From a virus: DNA of 24,080 nucleotides. The stretch lies in the UHGV virus genome UHGV-1465484; one strand, given 5' to 3'. The notes under the pieces are model-generated. The model made no database searches and was not told the DNA's origin. It saw nothing but the letters and a program-made list of their open reading frames with translations. The number at the start of each line of letters is the position of its first letter. Position 1 is the first letter of the stretch. The position numbers and the translations under genes are program-made. Below, in pieces: positions 7,457 to 22,322 of the stretch.

Positions 7457-7852
7457 ATGACGAAAGATGAACTGATTGCCCGTCTCCGCTCGCTGGGTGA
7501 ACAACTGAACCGTGATATCAGCCTGACGGGGACGAAAGAAGAACTGGCGCTCCGTGTGGCAGAGCTGGAAGAAGAGCTTGATGACACGGGCGACACTGCC
7601 GGTCAGGAGACCCCTCTCAGCCCGGAAAATGTGCTGACCGGACATGAAAATGAGGTTGTATCAGCGCAGCCGGATACCGTGACTGATACGGCTGATCTGG
7701 TCACGGTTGTGGCACTGGTGACGCTGCATACTGATGCACTTCACGCCACGCGGGATGAACCTGTGGCATTTGTGCTGCCGGGAACGGCGTTTCGTGTCTC
7801 TGCCGGTGTGGCAGCCGAAATGACAGAGCGCGGCCTGGCCAGAATGCAATAA
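7457..7852 (+). CDS. FI: DNA-packaging accessory protein gpFI
   Basis: ATG at 7457 preceded by GGAGGAG; MTKDELIARLRSLGEQ...; the six-frame ORF extends upstream to 7418 but the internal ATG with RBS matches lambda FI. Confidence 0.85.
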   Translation: MTKDELIARLRSLGEQLNRDISLTGTKEELALRVAELEEELDDTGDTAGQETPLSPENVLTGHENEVVSAQPDTVTDTADLVTVVALVTLHTDALHATRDEPVAFVLPGTAFRVSAGVAAEMTERGLARMQ

Positions 7853-8228: not shown

Positions 8229-8759
8229 ATGGCCATAAAAGGTCTTGAGCAGGCCGTTGAAAACCTAAGCCGTATCAGCAGAACGGCGGTGCCCGGTGCC
8301 GCCGCAATGGCCATTAACCGCGTTGCTTCATCCGCGATATCGCAGTCGGTGGCACAGGTTGCCCGTGAGACAAAGGTACGCCGGAAACTGGTAAAGGAAA
8401 GGGCCAGGCTGAAAAGGGCCACGGTCAAAAATCCGCAGGCCAGAATCAGGGTTAACCGGGGGGATTTGCCCGTAATCAAGCTGGGTAACGCGCGGGTTGT
8501 CCTTTCCCGCCGCAGACGTCGTAAAAAGGGGCAGCGTTCATCCCTGAAAGGTGGCGGCAGCGTGCTTGTGGTGGGAAACCGTCGTATTCCCGGCGCGTTT
8601 ATTCAGCAACTGAAAAATGGCCGGTGGCATGTCATGCAGCGTGTGGCCGGGAAAAACCGTTACCCCATTGATGTGGTGAAAATCCCGATGGCGGTGCCGC
8701 TGACCACGGCGTTTAAACAGAATATTGAACGGATACGGCGTGAACGTCTTCCGGAATAG
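8229..8759 (+). CDS. Z: Tail completion protein gpZ, ending at an in-frame TAG 16 codons before the expected stop (possible amber/truncated allele)
   Basis: 176-aa ORF; the same frame continues after TAG (8757-8759) for 15 sense codons ([15 protein letters not shown]) to a TGA at 8805-8807 that overlaps the U start codon; the untruncated product would be 192 aa, the lambda Z length. Confidence 0.85.
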   Translation: MAIKGLEQAVENLSRISRTAVPGAAAMAINRVASSAISQSVAQVARETKVRRKLVKERARLKRATVKNPQARIRVNRGDLPVIKLGNARVVLSRRRRRKKGQRSSLKGGGSVLVVGNRRIPGAFIQQLKNGRWHVMQRVAGKNRYPIDVVKIPMAVPLTTAFKQNIERIRRERLPE

Positions 8760-8803
8760 CTGGCCTATGCGCTGCAGCATCAACTGAGAATGGTAATAAA
8801 GCG

Positions 8804-9199
8804 ATGAAACATACTGAACTCCGTGCAGCCGTACTGGATGCACTGGAGAAGCATGACACCGGGGCGACGCTTTTTGATGGTCGCCCCGCTGTTTTTGATG
8901 AGGAAGATTTTCCGGCAATTGCCGTTTATCTCACCGGCGCTGAATACACGGGCGAAGAGCTGGACAGCGATACCTGGCAGGCGGAGCTGCATATTGAAGT
9001 TTTCCTGCCTGCTCAGGTGCCGGATTCAGAGCTGGATGCGTGGATGGAGTCCCGGATTTATCCGGTGATGAGCGATATCCCGGCACTGTCAGATTTGATC
9101 ACCAGTATGGTGGCCAGTGGCTATGACTACCGGCGCGACGATGATGCGGGCCTGTGGAGTTCAGCCGATCTGACTTATGTCATTACCTATGAAATGTGA
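8804..9199 (+). CDS. U: Tail terminator protein gpU
   Basis: 131-aa ORF; its ATG (8804) overlaps the TGA of the extended Z frame. Confidence 0.95.
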
Positions 9200-15726: not shown

Positions 15727-18700
15727 ATGGGTAAAGGCAGCAGTAAGGGGCATACCCCGCGCGAAGCGAAGGACAACCTGAAATCCACGCAGCTGTTGAG
15801 TGCGATTGATGCCATCAGCGAAGGGCCGATTGAAGGTCCGGTGGATGGATTAAAAAGCGTGCTGCTGAACAGTACGCCGGTGCTGGACAGTGAGGGGAAT
15901 ACCAATATCTCCGGCGTCACGGTGGTGTTCCGGGCAGGTGAGCAGGAGCAGTCACCGCCGGAGGGATTTGAATCCTCCGGTTCCGAGACGGTGCTGGGTA
16001 CGGAAGTGAAATATGAAACGCCGATCACCCGGACCATCACGTCGGCAAACATCGACCGTCTGCGCTTTACCTTCGGTGTACAGGCACTGGTGGAAACCAC
16101 CTCAAAGGGAGACAGGAATCCGTCGGAAGTCCGCCTGCTGGTTCAGATACAGCGTAACGGTGGCTGGGTGACGGAAAAAGACATCACCATTAAGGGCAAA
16201 ACCACCTCGCAGTATCTGGCCTCGGTGGTGGTGGATAACCTGCCGCCGCGCCCGTTCAATATCCGGATGCGCAGGATGACGCCGGACAGCACCACAGACC
16301 AGCTGCAGAACAAAACGCTCTGGTCGTCATACACCGAAATCATCGATGTGAAACAGTGCTACCCGAACACGGCACTGGTCGGCGTACAGGTGGACTCGGA
16401 GCAGTTCGGCAGCCAGCAGGTGAGCCGTAATTATCATCTTCGCGGGCGCATTCTGCAGGTGCCGTCGAACTATAACCCGCAGACGCGACAATACAGCGGT
16501 ATCTGGGACGGAACGTTAAAACCAGCATACAGCAACAACATGGCCTGGTGTCTGTGGGATATGCTGACCCACCCGCGCTACGGCATGGGGAAACGTCTTG
16601 GTGCGGCGGATGTGGACAAATGGGCGCTGTATGTCATCGGCCAGTACTGCGACCAGTCAGTGCCGGACGGCTTTGGCGGCACGGAGCCGCGCATCACCTG
16701 TAATGCGTACCTGACCACACAGCGCAAGGCGTGGGATGTGCTCAGTGATTTCTGCTCGGCGATGCGCTGTATGCCGGTATGGAACGGGCAGACGCTGACG
16801 TTCGTGCAGGACCGACAGTCGGATAAGGTGTGGACCTATAACCGCAGTAATGTGGTGATGCCGGATGATGGCGCGCCGTTCCGCTACAGCTTCAGCGCCC
16901 TGAAGGACCGCCATAATGCCGTTGAGGTGAACTGGATTGACCCGAACAACGGCTGGGAGACGGCGACAGAGCTTGTTGAAGATACGCAGGCCATTGCCCG
17001 TTACGGTCGTAATGTCACGAAGATGGATGCCTTTGGTTGTACCAGCCGGGGGCAGGCACACCGCGCCGGGCTGTGGCTGATTAAAACGGAACTGCTGGAA
17101 ACGCAGACCGTGGATTTCAGCGTGGGCGCAGAAGGGCTTCGCCATGTGCCGGGCGATGTTATTGAAATCTGCGATGATGACTATGCCGGTATCAGCACCG
17201 GTGGTCGCGTGCTGGCGGTGAACAGCCAGACCCGGACGCTGACGCTCGACCGTGAAATCACGCTGCCATCCTCCGGTACCACGCTGATAAGCCTGGTTGA
17301 CGGAAGTGGCAATCCGGTCAGCGTGGAGGTTCAGTCCGTCACCGACGGCGTGAAGGTAAAAGTGAGCCGTGTTCCTGACGGTGTTGCTGAATACAGCGTA
17401 TGGGGGCTGAAGCTGCCGACGCTGCGCCAGCGACTGTTCCGCTGCGTGAGTATCCGTGAGAACGACGACGGCACGTATGCCATCACCGCCGTGCAGCATG
17501 TGCCGGAAAAAGAGGCCATCGTGGATAACGGGGCGCACTTTGACGGCGAACAGAGTGGCACGGTGAATGGTGTCACGCCGCCAGCGGTGCAGCACCTGAC
17601 CGCAGAAGTCACTGCAGACAGCGGGGAATATCAGGTGCTGGCGCGATGGGACACACCGAAGGTGGTGAAGGGCGTGAGCTTCCTGCTTCGCCTGACCGTG
17701 GCAGCGGATGACGGCAGTGAGCGGCTGGTCAGCACGGCCCGGACGACGGAAACCACATACCGCTTCACGCAACTGGCGCCAGGGAACTACAGGCTGACAG
17801 TCCGGGCGGCAAATGCCTGGGGGCAGCAGGGCGATCCGGCATCGGTATCGTTCCGTATTGCCGCACCGGCAGCGCCGTCGCGGATTGAGCTGACGCCGGG
17901 CTATTTTCAGATAACCGCCACGCCCCATCTTGCCGTTTATGATCCGACGGTACAGTTTGAGTTCTGGTTCTCGGAAAAGCGGATTGCGGATATCAGGCAG
18001 GTTGAAACCACAGCCCGCTATCTTGGCACGGCGCTGTACTGGATAGCTGCCAGTATCAATATCAAACCGGGCCATGATTATTATTTTTACATCCGCAGTG
18101 TGAACACCGTTGGCAAATCGGCATTTGTGGAGGCTGTTGGCCAGCCGAGTGATGATGCATCCGGCTATCTGGATTTTTTCAAAGGCGAGATAGGGAAAAG
18201 CCATCTGGCTCAGGAGCTGTGGACGCAGATTGATAACGGTCAGCTTGCGCCTGACCTGGCTGAAATCAGGACGTCCATTACGGATGTCAGCAATGAAATC
18301 ACGCAGACCGTCAATAAGAAACTGGAAGACCAGAGTGCGGCAATTCAGCAGATACAGAAGGTTCAGGTTGATACAAATAATAACCTGAACAGCATGTGGG
18401 CTGTGAAGCTGCAGCAGATGCAGGACGGACGCCTTTATATCGCGGGTATTGGTGCCGGTATTGAGAACACCCCTGACGGCATGCAGAGTCAGGTGCTGCT
18501 GGCGGCGGACAGGATTGCGATGGTTAATCCTGCGAATGGCAACACAAAGCCGATGTTTGTTGGTCAGGGCGATCAGATATTCATGAACGAAGTGTTCCTG
18601 AAATATCTGACGGCTCCCACCATTACCAGCGGCGGTAATCCTCCGGCATTTTCCCTGACACCGGACGGGCGGCTGACGGCGAAAAATGCCGATATCAGCG

Positions 18701-19931: not shown

Positions 19932-22322
19932 GTGGATAGGGCAGCAGTAAAAATCTCAGGTGTGCGGAAAGATGGTGCGGGAGAACCAATACAGAACTGC
20001 ACTATTCAACTGAAGGCAAAGCGTAACAGCACCACGGTACTGGTGAACACGGTGGCCTCTGAAAATCCTGATGAAGCCGGGCGTTACAGCATGGATGTTG
20101 AGTATGGCCAGTACAGCGTCACCCTGCTGGTTGAAGGTTTTCCGCCTTCACATGCCGGGACCATTACCGTCTATGAAGGCTCCAGACCAGGTACGCTGAA
20201 TGATTTTCTCGGTGCCATGACGGAAGATGATGTCATGCCGGAGGCATTGCGTCGTTTTGAACTGATGGTGGAAGAAGTGGCACGCAACGCCGAAGCCGCC
20301 TCTCAGAGCGCAGCGGCGGCAAAGAAATCCGAAACTGCAGCGGCATCATCAAAGAACGCGGCGAAAACCTCAGAAACGAATGCAGCTAATAGTGCACAGG
20401 CGGCAGCGACCTCAAAGACTGCATCGGCAAACTCCGCGACAGCAGCCAAAAAATCAGAAACCAACGCGAAAAATAGCGAGACAGCCGCAAAGACGAGCGA
20501 AACCAACGCAAAGTCCAGCCAGACGGCAGCGAAAACCAGCGAAACGAATGCCAAAGCCAGTGAAACTGCGGCAAAAAACAGCCAGGTTGCAGCAGCCCAA
20601 AGCGAGAGCGCGGCAGCCGGTTCTGCGACTTCAGCAGCTGGATCAGCAACTGCTGCGGCTAACAGCCAGAAAGCTGCGAAGACGAGTGAAACTAACGCAA
20701 AGTCCAGCCAGACGGCAGCGAAGACCAGCGAAACGAATGCCAAAACCAGCGAAACTGCGGCGAAAAACAGTCAGGATGCAGCAGCCCAAAGCGAGAGTGC
20801 TGCAGCTGGTTCTGCAAGCGCGGCGGCTGCTTCTGCCATTGCATCAGCCAACAGTCAAAAAGCTGCAAAAACCAGTGAAACCAACGCAAAGGCGAGCGAG
20901 ACTGCGGCTGCTAACTCGGCGAAAGCATCAGCTGCAAGCCAGACGGCTGCAAAAGCAAGTGAAGACGCAGCCAGGGAGTACGCAAGCCAGGCAGCAGAGC
21001 CGTATAAATATGTCTTACAGCCGCTTCCTGATGTGTGGATACCGTTTAACGATTCACTGGATATGATTACGGGCTTTTCGCCATCATATAAAAAGATTGT
21101 TATTGGTGATGATGAAATAACAATGCCTGGCGACAAGATTGTAAAGTTTAAACGCGCATCAAAAGCAACTTACATTAATAAATCTGGTGTGCTGACAGAG
21201 GCTGCAATCGATGAACCTCGCTTTGAAAAGTATGGATTGCTGATTGAAGGGCAGCGTACAAACCTGTTAATAAACAGCACAAATCCATCAAAATGGAACA
21301 AGTCATCAAATATGATTTTAAATACATCAGGTGTAGATGATTTTGGTTTCCAGTACGCAAAATTCACATTAAAACCAGAAATGGTGGGGCAAACCTCAGC
21401 CATTTCTATTGTCACAGTATCTGGAAGCAAAGGATATGATGTTACCGGCGATGAAAAGTATGTAACTATCTCATGCAGGGTACAAAGTGGGACTCCAAAT
21501 TTAAGATGTCGATTACGATTTGAAGAATATGATGGATCTACCTACAAATTCCTGGGTGATGCTTACTTAAATATGACAGATTTATCGATTGATAAAACTG
21601 GCGGCGCTGCAAGTCGTATTACTGCAAGGGCTGTTAAAAATGAAGCAAGCAAATGGATTTTCTTTGAGGCAACAATTAAGGCACTTGATACAGAAAATAT
21701 GATCGGTGCGATGGTGCAATATGCACCACCAAAAGGGGGAAGCACTGGTGCAGATGATTATATTTATGTTGCAACTCCTCAGGTCGAAGGCGGTTCGTGC
21801 GCTTCTTCGTTTATTATTACTGAGGCAACGCCAGTCACAAGAGCCAGTGATATGGTGAATATACCAACAAATAACAATATCGGTACACCACCTTTAACAT
21901 TTCTAGCTGAAGTTCATACAAACTGGAACGAAACGCCAAATGCAGCACCACGAATTTTTGATACCAGTGGTGGGAGCACAACTCCGGGTCAATATATAAG
22001 TGTTGCTATTAGTTCAACATTATTTCCTGGTGTTACGATGCACAATAAAAACGGTAGTACAGTAGCCGCCGTATCGCCAGTATTATTTGAACAAAAATCT
22101 GTTCTTGGATTTGTTTTAAATGAATCTGGTAATGTGCATTTCGTTAGCAATGCCCAGCATGGGACTCCTAAAACCACGGATCATGTCGGTGTTAAATCTG
22201 GTTATTTCTTCAGGATTGGGGGACAGACTAATAGCGGTCTACGTCATCTTTTCGGTCACATTCGTAATTTTCGTATATGGCATAAAGAATTAACCGATGC
22301 ACAAATGGGAGAGGTAATATAA
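19932..22322 (+). CDS. stf: Side tail fibre protein: lambda-Stf-like N-terminus and Ala/Ser/Thr heptad shaft fused to a non-lambda C-terminal tip with a LamG/ConA-like lectin signature
   Basis: 796-aa ORF; first start in frame is GTG at 19932 (exact start uncertain); residues ~5-120 resemble lambda Stf from memory; residues ~120-335 are KTSETNA-type heptad repeats; the remainder is AT-rich and ends in ...HIRNFRIWHKELTDAQMGEVI. Confidence 0.85.
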   Translation: MDRAAVKISGVRKDGAGEPIQNCTIQLKAKRNSTTVLVNTVASENPDEAGRYSMDVEYGQYSVTLLVEGFPPSHAGTITVYEGSRPGTLNDFLGAMTEDDVMPEALRRFELMVEEVARNAEAASQSAAAAKKSETAAASSKNAAKTSETNAANSAQAAATSKTASANSATAAKKSETNAKNSETAAKTSETNAKSSQTAAKTSETNAKASETAAKNSQVAAAQSESAAAGSATSAAGSATAAANSQKAAKTSETNAKSSQTAAKTSETNAKTSETAAKNSQDAAAQSESAAAGSASAAAASAIASANSQKAAKTSETNAKASETAAANSAKASAASQTAAKASEDAAREYASQAAEPYKYVLQPLPDVWIPFNDSLDMITGFSPSYKKIVIGDDEITMPGDKIVKFKRASKATYINKSGVLTEAAIDEPRFEKYGLLIEGQRTNLLINSTNPSKWNKSSNMILNTSGVDDFGFQYAKFTLKPEMVGQTSAISIVTVSGSKGYDVTGDEKYVTISCRVQSGTPNLRCRLRFEEYDGSTYKFLGDAYLNMTDLSIDKTGGAASRITARAVKNEASKWIFFEATIKALDTENMIGAMVQYAPPKGGSTGADDYIYVATPQVEGGSCASSFIITEATPVTRASDMVNIPTNNNIGTPPLTFLAEVHTNWNETPNAAPRIFDTSGGSTTPGQYISVAISSTLFPGVTMHNKNGSTVAAVSPVLFEQKSVLGFVLNESGNVHFVSNAQHGTPKTTDHVGVKSGYFFRIGGQTNSGLRHLFGHIRNFRIWHKELTDAQMGEVI
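20290..20980 (+). repeat. Internal coding repeat region of stf: 21-nt (7-aa) heptad units, including two ~140-bp direct copies (20487-20626 and 20676-20815) spaced 189 bp apart
   Basis: The two copies were aligned by eye and are about 90% identical; at protein level AAKTSETNAKSSQTAAKTSETNAK(A/T)SETAAKNSQ(V/D)AAAQSESAAAGSA occurs twice. Confidence 0.8.

Follow-up and report, generated by a model that had tools for sequence, protein, structure and literature searches.

The in-frame amber codon that ends the tail gene Z after 176 codons in UHGV-1465484 is most likely a read or assembly artefact of a thin metagenome contig and probably does not exist in the biological DNA. We put the probability of this reading at roughly 0.7, inferring the cause from the assembled sequence. 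The observations beneath it, namely the origin and coverage of the contig, the clustering of the private substitutions, the uniqueness of the variant and the conservation of the removed protein segment, were made directly. All coordinates below refer to the window, that is, the entire stretch of 24,080 nt that was analyzed.

The Z gene as assembled and its conserved end

The features at the Z-U junction are as follows.

8229..8759, plus strand: Z, tail completion protein (PF06763, Minor_tail_Z), from the ORF list and gene call, 176 aa up to the TAG
8754..8764, plus strand: private cluster of three substitutions in 11 nt, the sole differences from the TCM3e1, ECE313 and strain 20 prophages here
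8757..8759, plus strand: in-frame TAG, Z codon 177
8760..8807, plus strand: orphaned 3' end of Z, comprising 15 sense codons and the ancestral TGA, wild type apart from 8764
8804..9199, plus strand: U, tail terminator, 100% identical to relatives

Z starts with ATG at 8229 and lies between FII (head-tail joining) and U, upstream of the major tail gene V, as follows from Pfam gene calls and the annotation of near-identical prophages. The sequence-only reading had Z stop at TAG 8757–8759, with the same frame continuing through 15 sense codons to TGA 8805–8807, and both the coordinates and the frame are confirmed. Read-through would yield 192 aa, as that reading stated, which is the length of full-length homologs. 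The ancestral TGA, codon 193, indeed overlaps the U start codon (ATG, 8804–8806) as ATGA. The DNA for the missing C-terminus is thus still present and in frame, and since every base from 8765 through the end of U is identical to the full-length Z-U region of the nearest prophages, the open frame 3' of the TAG is not due to chance. No recognisable Shine-Dalgarno sequence is found upstream of U, and a real stop would entail the predicted loss of Z-to-U coupling: with Z translation ending 45 nt upstream of the U start, termination-reinitiation would be abolished and U translation probably lowered.

A protein search yielded 341 Z homologs at E<=1e-10, the best full-length ones being 96–97% identical; the same identity is observed between the E. 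coli 192-aa Z proteins and residues 1–176 of the window Z. All 14 aligned homologs, down to 61% identity, pass codon 177, and the conserved end ...KEL.YAL.QQLR..IKR is kept in 13 of them, the exception being P0034 with a frame-shifted end. The suggestion that the stop is not ancestral therefore stands, as every homolog examined runs past this codon and no close relative ends here. Lambda gpZ also has 192 aa and the PF06763 domain, and the window shares with lambda the FII-Z-U-V order and the overlap of TGA with the U start. Unlike lambda gpZ and its orthologs, the window Z stops at codon 177 without the conserved last 16 residues; as written, this ORF has neither the complete C-terminal helix nor a stop overlapping the U start.

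Two sets of short Z proteins were considered as natural early stops and rejected. Homologs of 176, 177 and 184 aa have internal deletions in a basic loop and retain the full C-terminus. The 176-aa database protein P0123, found in 17 draft contigs, ends in ...RLPK exactly at this position, and in all ten places listed the DNA is wild type and interrupted by the end of the contig. These ten contigs end within 3 nt of 8756–8758 (equivalent positions in L128-L137). Codons 176–180 are also a divergence hot spot between Z alleles. The contig breaks at codon 176, coinciding with the private cluster, look like a recurrent assembly fork.

In the AlphaFold model of a full-length Z homolog residues 155–191 form one C-terminal helix (mean pLDDT 79), and the TAG would cost approximately 40% of this predicted helix, that is, the last 16 residues. 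The arginine/lysine-rich loop RRRRRKKGQRSSLKGGG at residues ~87–110 (window ~8487–8558) is modeled with low confidence (pLDDT below 50 at residues 95–108), and this loop is naturally deleted or replaced in the abundant 177-aa Z alleles. No sequence match to gpZ is present in the PDB. In phage 80alpha the tail completion protein gp51 has its N- and C-terminal helices bundled with the tape measure protein's N-termini, by the DNA end, and gp51 is the sole tail completion protein seen in place (PMC11661146), while the position of gpZ in lambda virions is still not resolved (PMC10721106, PMC12617516). Lambda virions lacking gpZ have normal appearance and approximately 500-fold lower infectivity (PMC11661146, PMC11784142).

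Source contig and private substitutions

An exact-protein look-up identified the window as the entire contig ena:ERZ773425:NODE_614_length_24080_cov_5.589385 from a SPAdes-style metagenome assembly, with the mean k-mer coverage of just 5.6x (cov_5.589385). At this mean, some stretches of the contig must depend on one read. The Poisson estimate is coverage of at most one for approximately 2.5% of k-mers, or about 600 positions, which is a rough figure as k and the read length of the assembly are not given; under the same model, depth of at most two is expected at tens to hundreds of bases, depending on the read length. The contig is recorded under two “samples,” in ENA and JGI, which we take to be the same assembly held twice, given one contig of identical size. 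A literature search found no mention of the assembly accession ERZ773425.

The window spans the late operon, for head and tail, of a lambda-like prophage of E. coli, with the gene order Nu1-A-W-B-C-D-E-FI-FII-Z-U-V-G-T-H-M-L-K-I-J-lom-stf. It can be aligned gaplessly from 78 to 24080 with the prophages of E. coli TCM3e1, ECE313, and strain 20. The background is not that of lambda, to which Z-U is approximately 97% identical. Positions 1–77 bear no relation to the region found upstream of cos/Nu1 in those otherwise identical prophages, and encode the start of a minus-strand ORF (MLDTIVLKKEHLIPYLAKRQNEDNF...) running off the contig. The junction with position 78 was found in none of the top-ranked complete E. 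coli genomes, where the matches begin at 78; this end of the contig either belongs to a different moron gene or is chimeric.

Base-by-base comparison with the TCM3e1 prophage, located at 2168723–2192725 of NZ_CP066806.1, revealed just 10 differing sites among 24,003 aligned nt, gathered in three tight clusters.

7759, 7760, 7792, 7816: cluster 1, in FI
8754, 8757, 8764: cluster 2, in Z
19939, 19966, 19983: cluster 3, at the start of stf
19939..19983, plus strand: extent of the private stf cluster, three substitutions in 45 nt (19939 T>G, 19966 T>G, 19983 A>G)

The FI cluster (7759–7816) comprises four differences from the nearest prophage in 58 nt, with one A>P replacement and two synonymous changes. 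The allele is common, with 100% identity over the 141-nt stretch in many E. coli genomes and at least 99% in 682 records. We read it either as a short mosaic patch of the ordinary kind or as a bubble that was resolved in favour of a second allele.

In Z, A>G at 8754 leads to K176E, G>T at 8757 converts the E177 codon GAG to amber, and G>C at 8764 leads to G179A, so that the wild-type CTTCCGAAAGAGCTGGGCTAT is replaced by CTTCCGGAATAGCTGGCCTAT in the window. No other differences from E. coli CFSAN061771 and TCM3e1 are seen in the 971 nt of Z-U. The sequence-only reading spoke of a single nonsense change; instead, three substitutions lie within 11 nt, and the TAG arises from the middle one. Through A>G, TCCGGA and the 8-bp palindrome TTCCGGAA are formed; a designed edit at this position was considered and rejected, in view of the missense character of the flanking changes and of the metagenomic source. 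Mutagenesis templated by a direct or inverted repeat close by was likewise rejected, as the window contains no second or inverted copy: the mutated 18-mer does not recur in it even with three mismatches allowed, and no relevant repeat is present.

The Z cluster was found nowhere else. A 121-nt query (8700–8820) matched 4,552 places in 3,466 of 5,426 complete E. coli genomes, with the top identity of 97.5%, that is, three mismatches; the same maximum, again with three mismatches, was observed for all 91 matching phage records. Exact TAG-bearing 30-mers had no matches in IMG/VR, GTDB species representatives, or JGI metagenome contigs, nor did 30-mers with the two flanking sites left free in IMG/VR, GTDB representatives, and JGI metagenomes. 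A shorter pattern with G or T at the amber position had no matches in IMG/VR, in which the wild-type 30-mer is matched at least 120 times. Among approximately 15 billion proteins, the exact 176-aa product occurs in one contig only. The stop, as judged by these comparisons, is thus derived and private, not ancestral or shared.

The stf cluster behaves like the Z cluster. The change at 19939 converts the start codon ATG to AGG, and the other two lead to L10R (19966) and K16E (19983). Among the matches listed (11,593 places in complete E. coli genomes), no full-length 141-nt match has fewer than three mismatches, and IMG/VR contains no matches. In the near-identical prophages stf (window 19938–22019) is annotated as a pseudogene without the C-terminus, and is followed by small ORFs with tail-fibre domains and a capsid-gene fragment; rearrangement has already affected the tail-fibre end in this prophage lineage.

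As a control, we compared the finished genome of strain 20 with TCM3e1. Two clusters of differences, in J and stf, were found at L006 20703–20707 and 23184–23187 (equivalent to window positions 17780–17784 and 20261–20264), and both have 100% identity in hundreds of genomes. Real clusters between near-identical lambdoid prophages hence have visible donor alleles, and these patches show that very short allele exchanges are frequent in this module.

The private changes of the contig, in sum, form two clusters of three (in 11 and 45 nt), with no private singletons. Six randomly placed sites never reproduced this clustering in 1e6 trials. All six changes are nonsynonymous, including two knock-outs (the Z stop and the loss of the stf start), and four of the six, among them all three in stf, are changes to G.

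Possible origins of the stop codon

The reading of the TAG as an artefact agrees with these data in several respects. Coverage of the contig is low, and none of the independent sequences of the element has the variant. With six of six changes nonsynonymous and two genes knocked out, there is no sign of selection, and the changes resemble unfiltered noise. Changes to G are compatible with low-signal miscalls of two-colour Illumina chemistry. As in other low-coverage assembly errors, low coverage is combined with private clusters of read scale, no donor allele, and no purifying selection; the difference is that the artefact here is deduced from the assembled sequence. We suggest that at 8754–8764 and 19939–19983 the consensus may derive from a single read or read end of poor quality, or else from gap closure or read correction that introduced errors. 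Three wrong bases would then have entered at each of the two stretches; one of these bases, in Z, would have turned GAG (Glu177) into TAG, and the true Z would be an ordinary 192-aa protein whose TGA and the U start overlap, as they do in TCM3e1, ECE313, and strain 20. Read correction between mixed alleles may have contributed, explaining at most two of the three Z changes. Sequencing error, listed among several options by the sequence-only reading, is now clearly favoured, given the 5.6x contig and the second private cluster in stf.

Some observations do not fit an artefact so well. Read correction and bulge removal in SPAdes usually clear single-read errors where better-covered paths exist. 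The chance that a random coding substitution creates a stop is 3.5%, and that it destroys a start codon, 0.24%, so that one stop and one start loss among six noise changes are somewhat unlikely. Moreover, the Z cluster (A>G, G>T, G>C) is without a single clear error signature.

A rival reading is a real private multi-nucleotide mutation in one prophage lineage, e.g., by error-prone repair synthesis, which would leave gpZ truncated at 176 residues. The deposited sequence does carry the changes, and two knock-outs among six changes, both in tail genes, exceed typical noise. Prophages do accumulate inactivating mutations, with stf already annotated as a pseudogene in the nearest relatives. The removed Z segment is conserved and falls within the modeled helix 155–191; the 80alpha helix bundle with the tape measure and the approximately 500-fold lower infectivity of gpZ-less lambda (PMC11661146, PMC11784142) also speak for this origin. 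This origin nevertheless requires two independent three-substitution events in 24 kb together with zero private single substitutions. Multi-nucleotide events are normally much rarer than single-base changes. Thousands of related prophages show nothing similar, the coverage of the contig is low, and a broken Z or stf spares no host from lysis, so that no selection at the level of the host explains the changes. We regard a private mutation as unlikely, albeit deserving consideration.

The Z cluster could also be a very short recombination or gene-conversion patch from a divergent unsampled Z allele, similar to the FI patch at 7759–7816, for which a donor with CCGGAA(G/T)AGCTGGCC in another background would be expected. 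These prophages commonly contain short mosaic patches, one of them located just 1 kb upstream; codons 176–180 are a natural hot spot of divergence, and G at 8754 as well as C at 8764 occur in divergent Z alleles. However, linked differences at 8753, 8759, and 8765 are present in the known divergent alleles but missing from the window, and none of these alleles has T at 8757. No donor was found in any collection searched, even allowing for G or T at 8757. The donor would itself have to hold a nonsense codon, and the same special pleading would be needed for the lost start in the stf cluster. We consider recombination very improbable as the source.

That the TAG is functional or deliberate, be it a suppressor-dependent amber allele, a laboratory marker, programmed read-through, or a reassigned codon, is the least credible option, and we give it next to no weight. 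It draws on the intact downstream frame and on the nucleotide after the TAG, which is C; TAG followed by C is a comparatively leaky context. On the other hand, this is the sole in-frame TAG, and Z alone among the 19 structural genes checked has TAG as its terminator, the other 18 being intact, free of internal stops, and ending with TAA or TGA. The pattern expected for TAG reassignment (many in-frame TAGs, with TAG avoided as a terminator) is thus not observed in the window. No tRNA gene is present within the 24 kb; the suppressor tRNA that an amber allele needs could be encoded by phage or host. No RNA structure that might mask the U start or favour read-through is seen at the TAG or the Z-U junction, where the fold is weaker than in shuffled sequences (z = +1.4). 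The proposal of a laboratory amber marker is very unlikely to be right: the sequence was assembled from a metagenome and represents a wild prophage of the E. coli type rather than laboratory lambda, and a transversion with two flanking missense changes resembles neither a classical amber isolate nor a designed silent-marker edit. The variant is also unique.

A related possibility is that the TAG is real and the phage viable, with gpZ lacking the last 16 residues, or low-level read-through at UAG-C, being tolerated. No other sequence has the TAG, and the earlier idea of a tolerated natural truncation finds no support in our data; we hold it to be highly improbable. If true, it would mean that the conserved end of the gpZ helix and the Z/U stop-start overlap are dispensable.

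The known lambda Z amber (sus) mutants likewise have a nonsense codon in Z, and the same approximately 500-fold loss of infectivity would be expected here if the stop were real (PMC11661146, PMC11784142, PMC11099176). In contrast to them, the window sequence is neither lambda nor of laboratory origin, its stop is very late, leaving a partial product, and the G>T transversion is flanked by two missense changes and is probably absent from the DNA.

Implications for the prophage and for gpZ

The Z stop is most probably an artefact of a thin contig and, failing that, a one-off inactivating mutation. The result is mainly a caution, as an apparent amber allele vanishes on inspection of the contig's origin and other private differences. 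If the stop were nevertheless real, by analogy with lambda Z– particles the phage would produce normal-looking but poorly infectious virions, and the prophage would be decaying. It would then be one more inactivated prophage tail gene, an ordinary finding that opens no new question, and would provide a small hint on the role of the C-terminal helix of gpZ.
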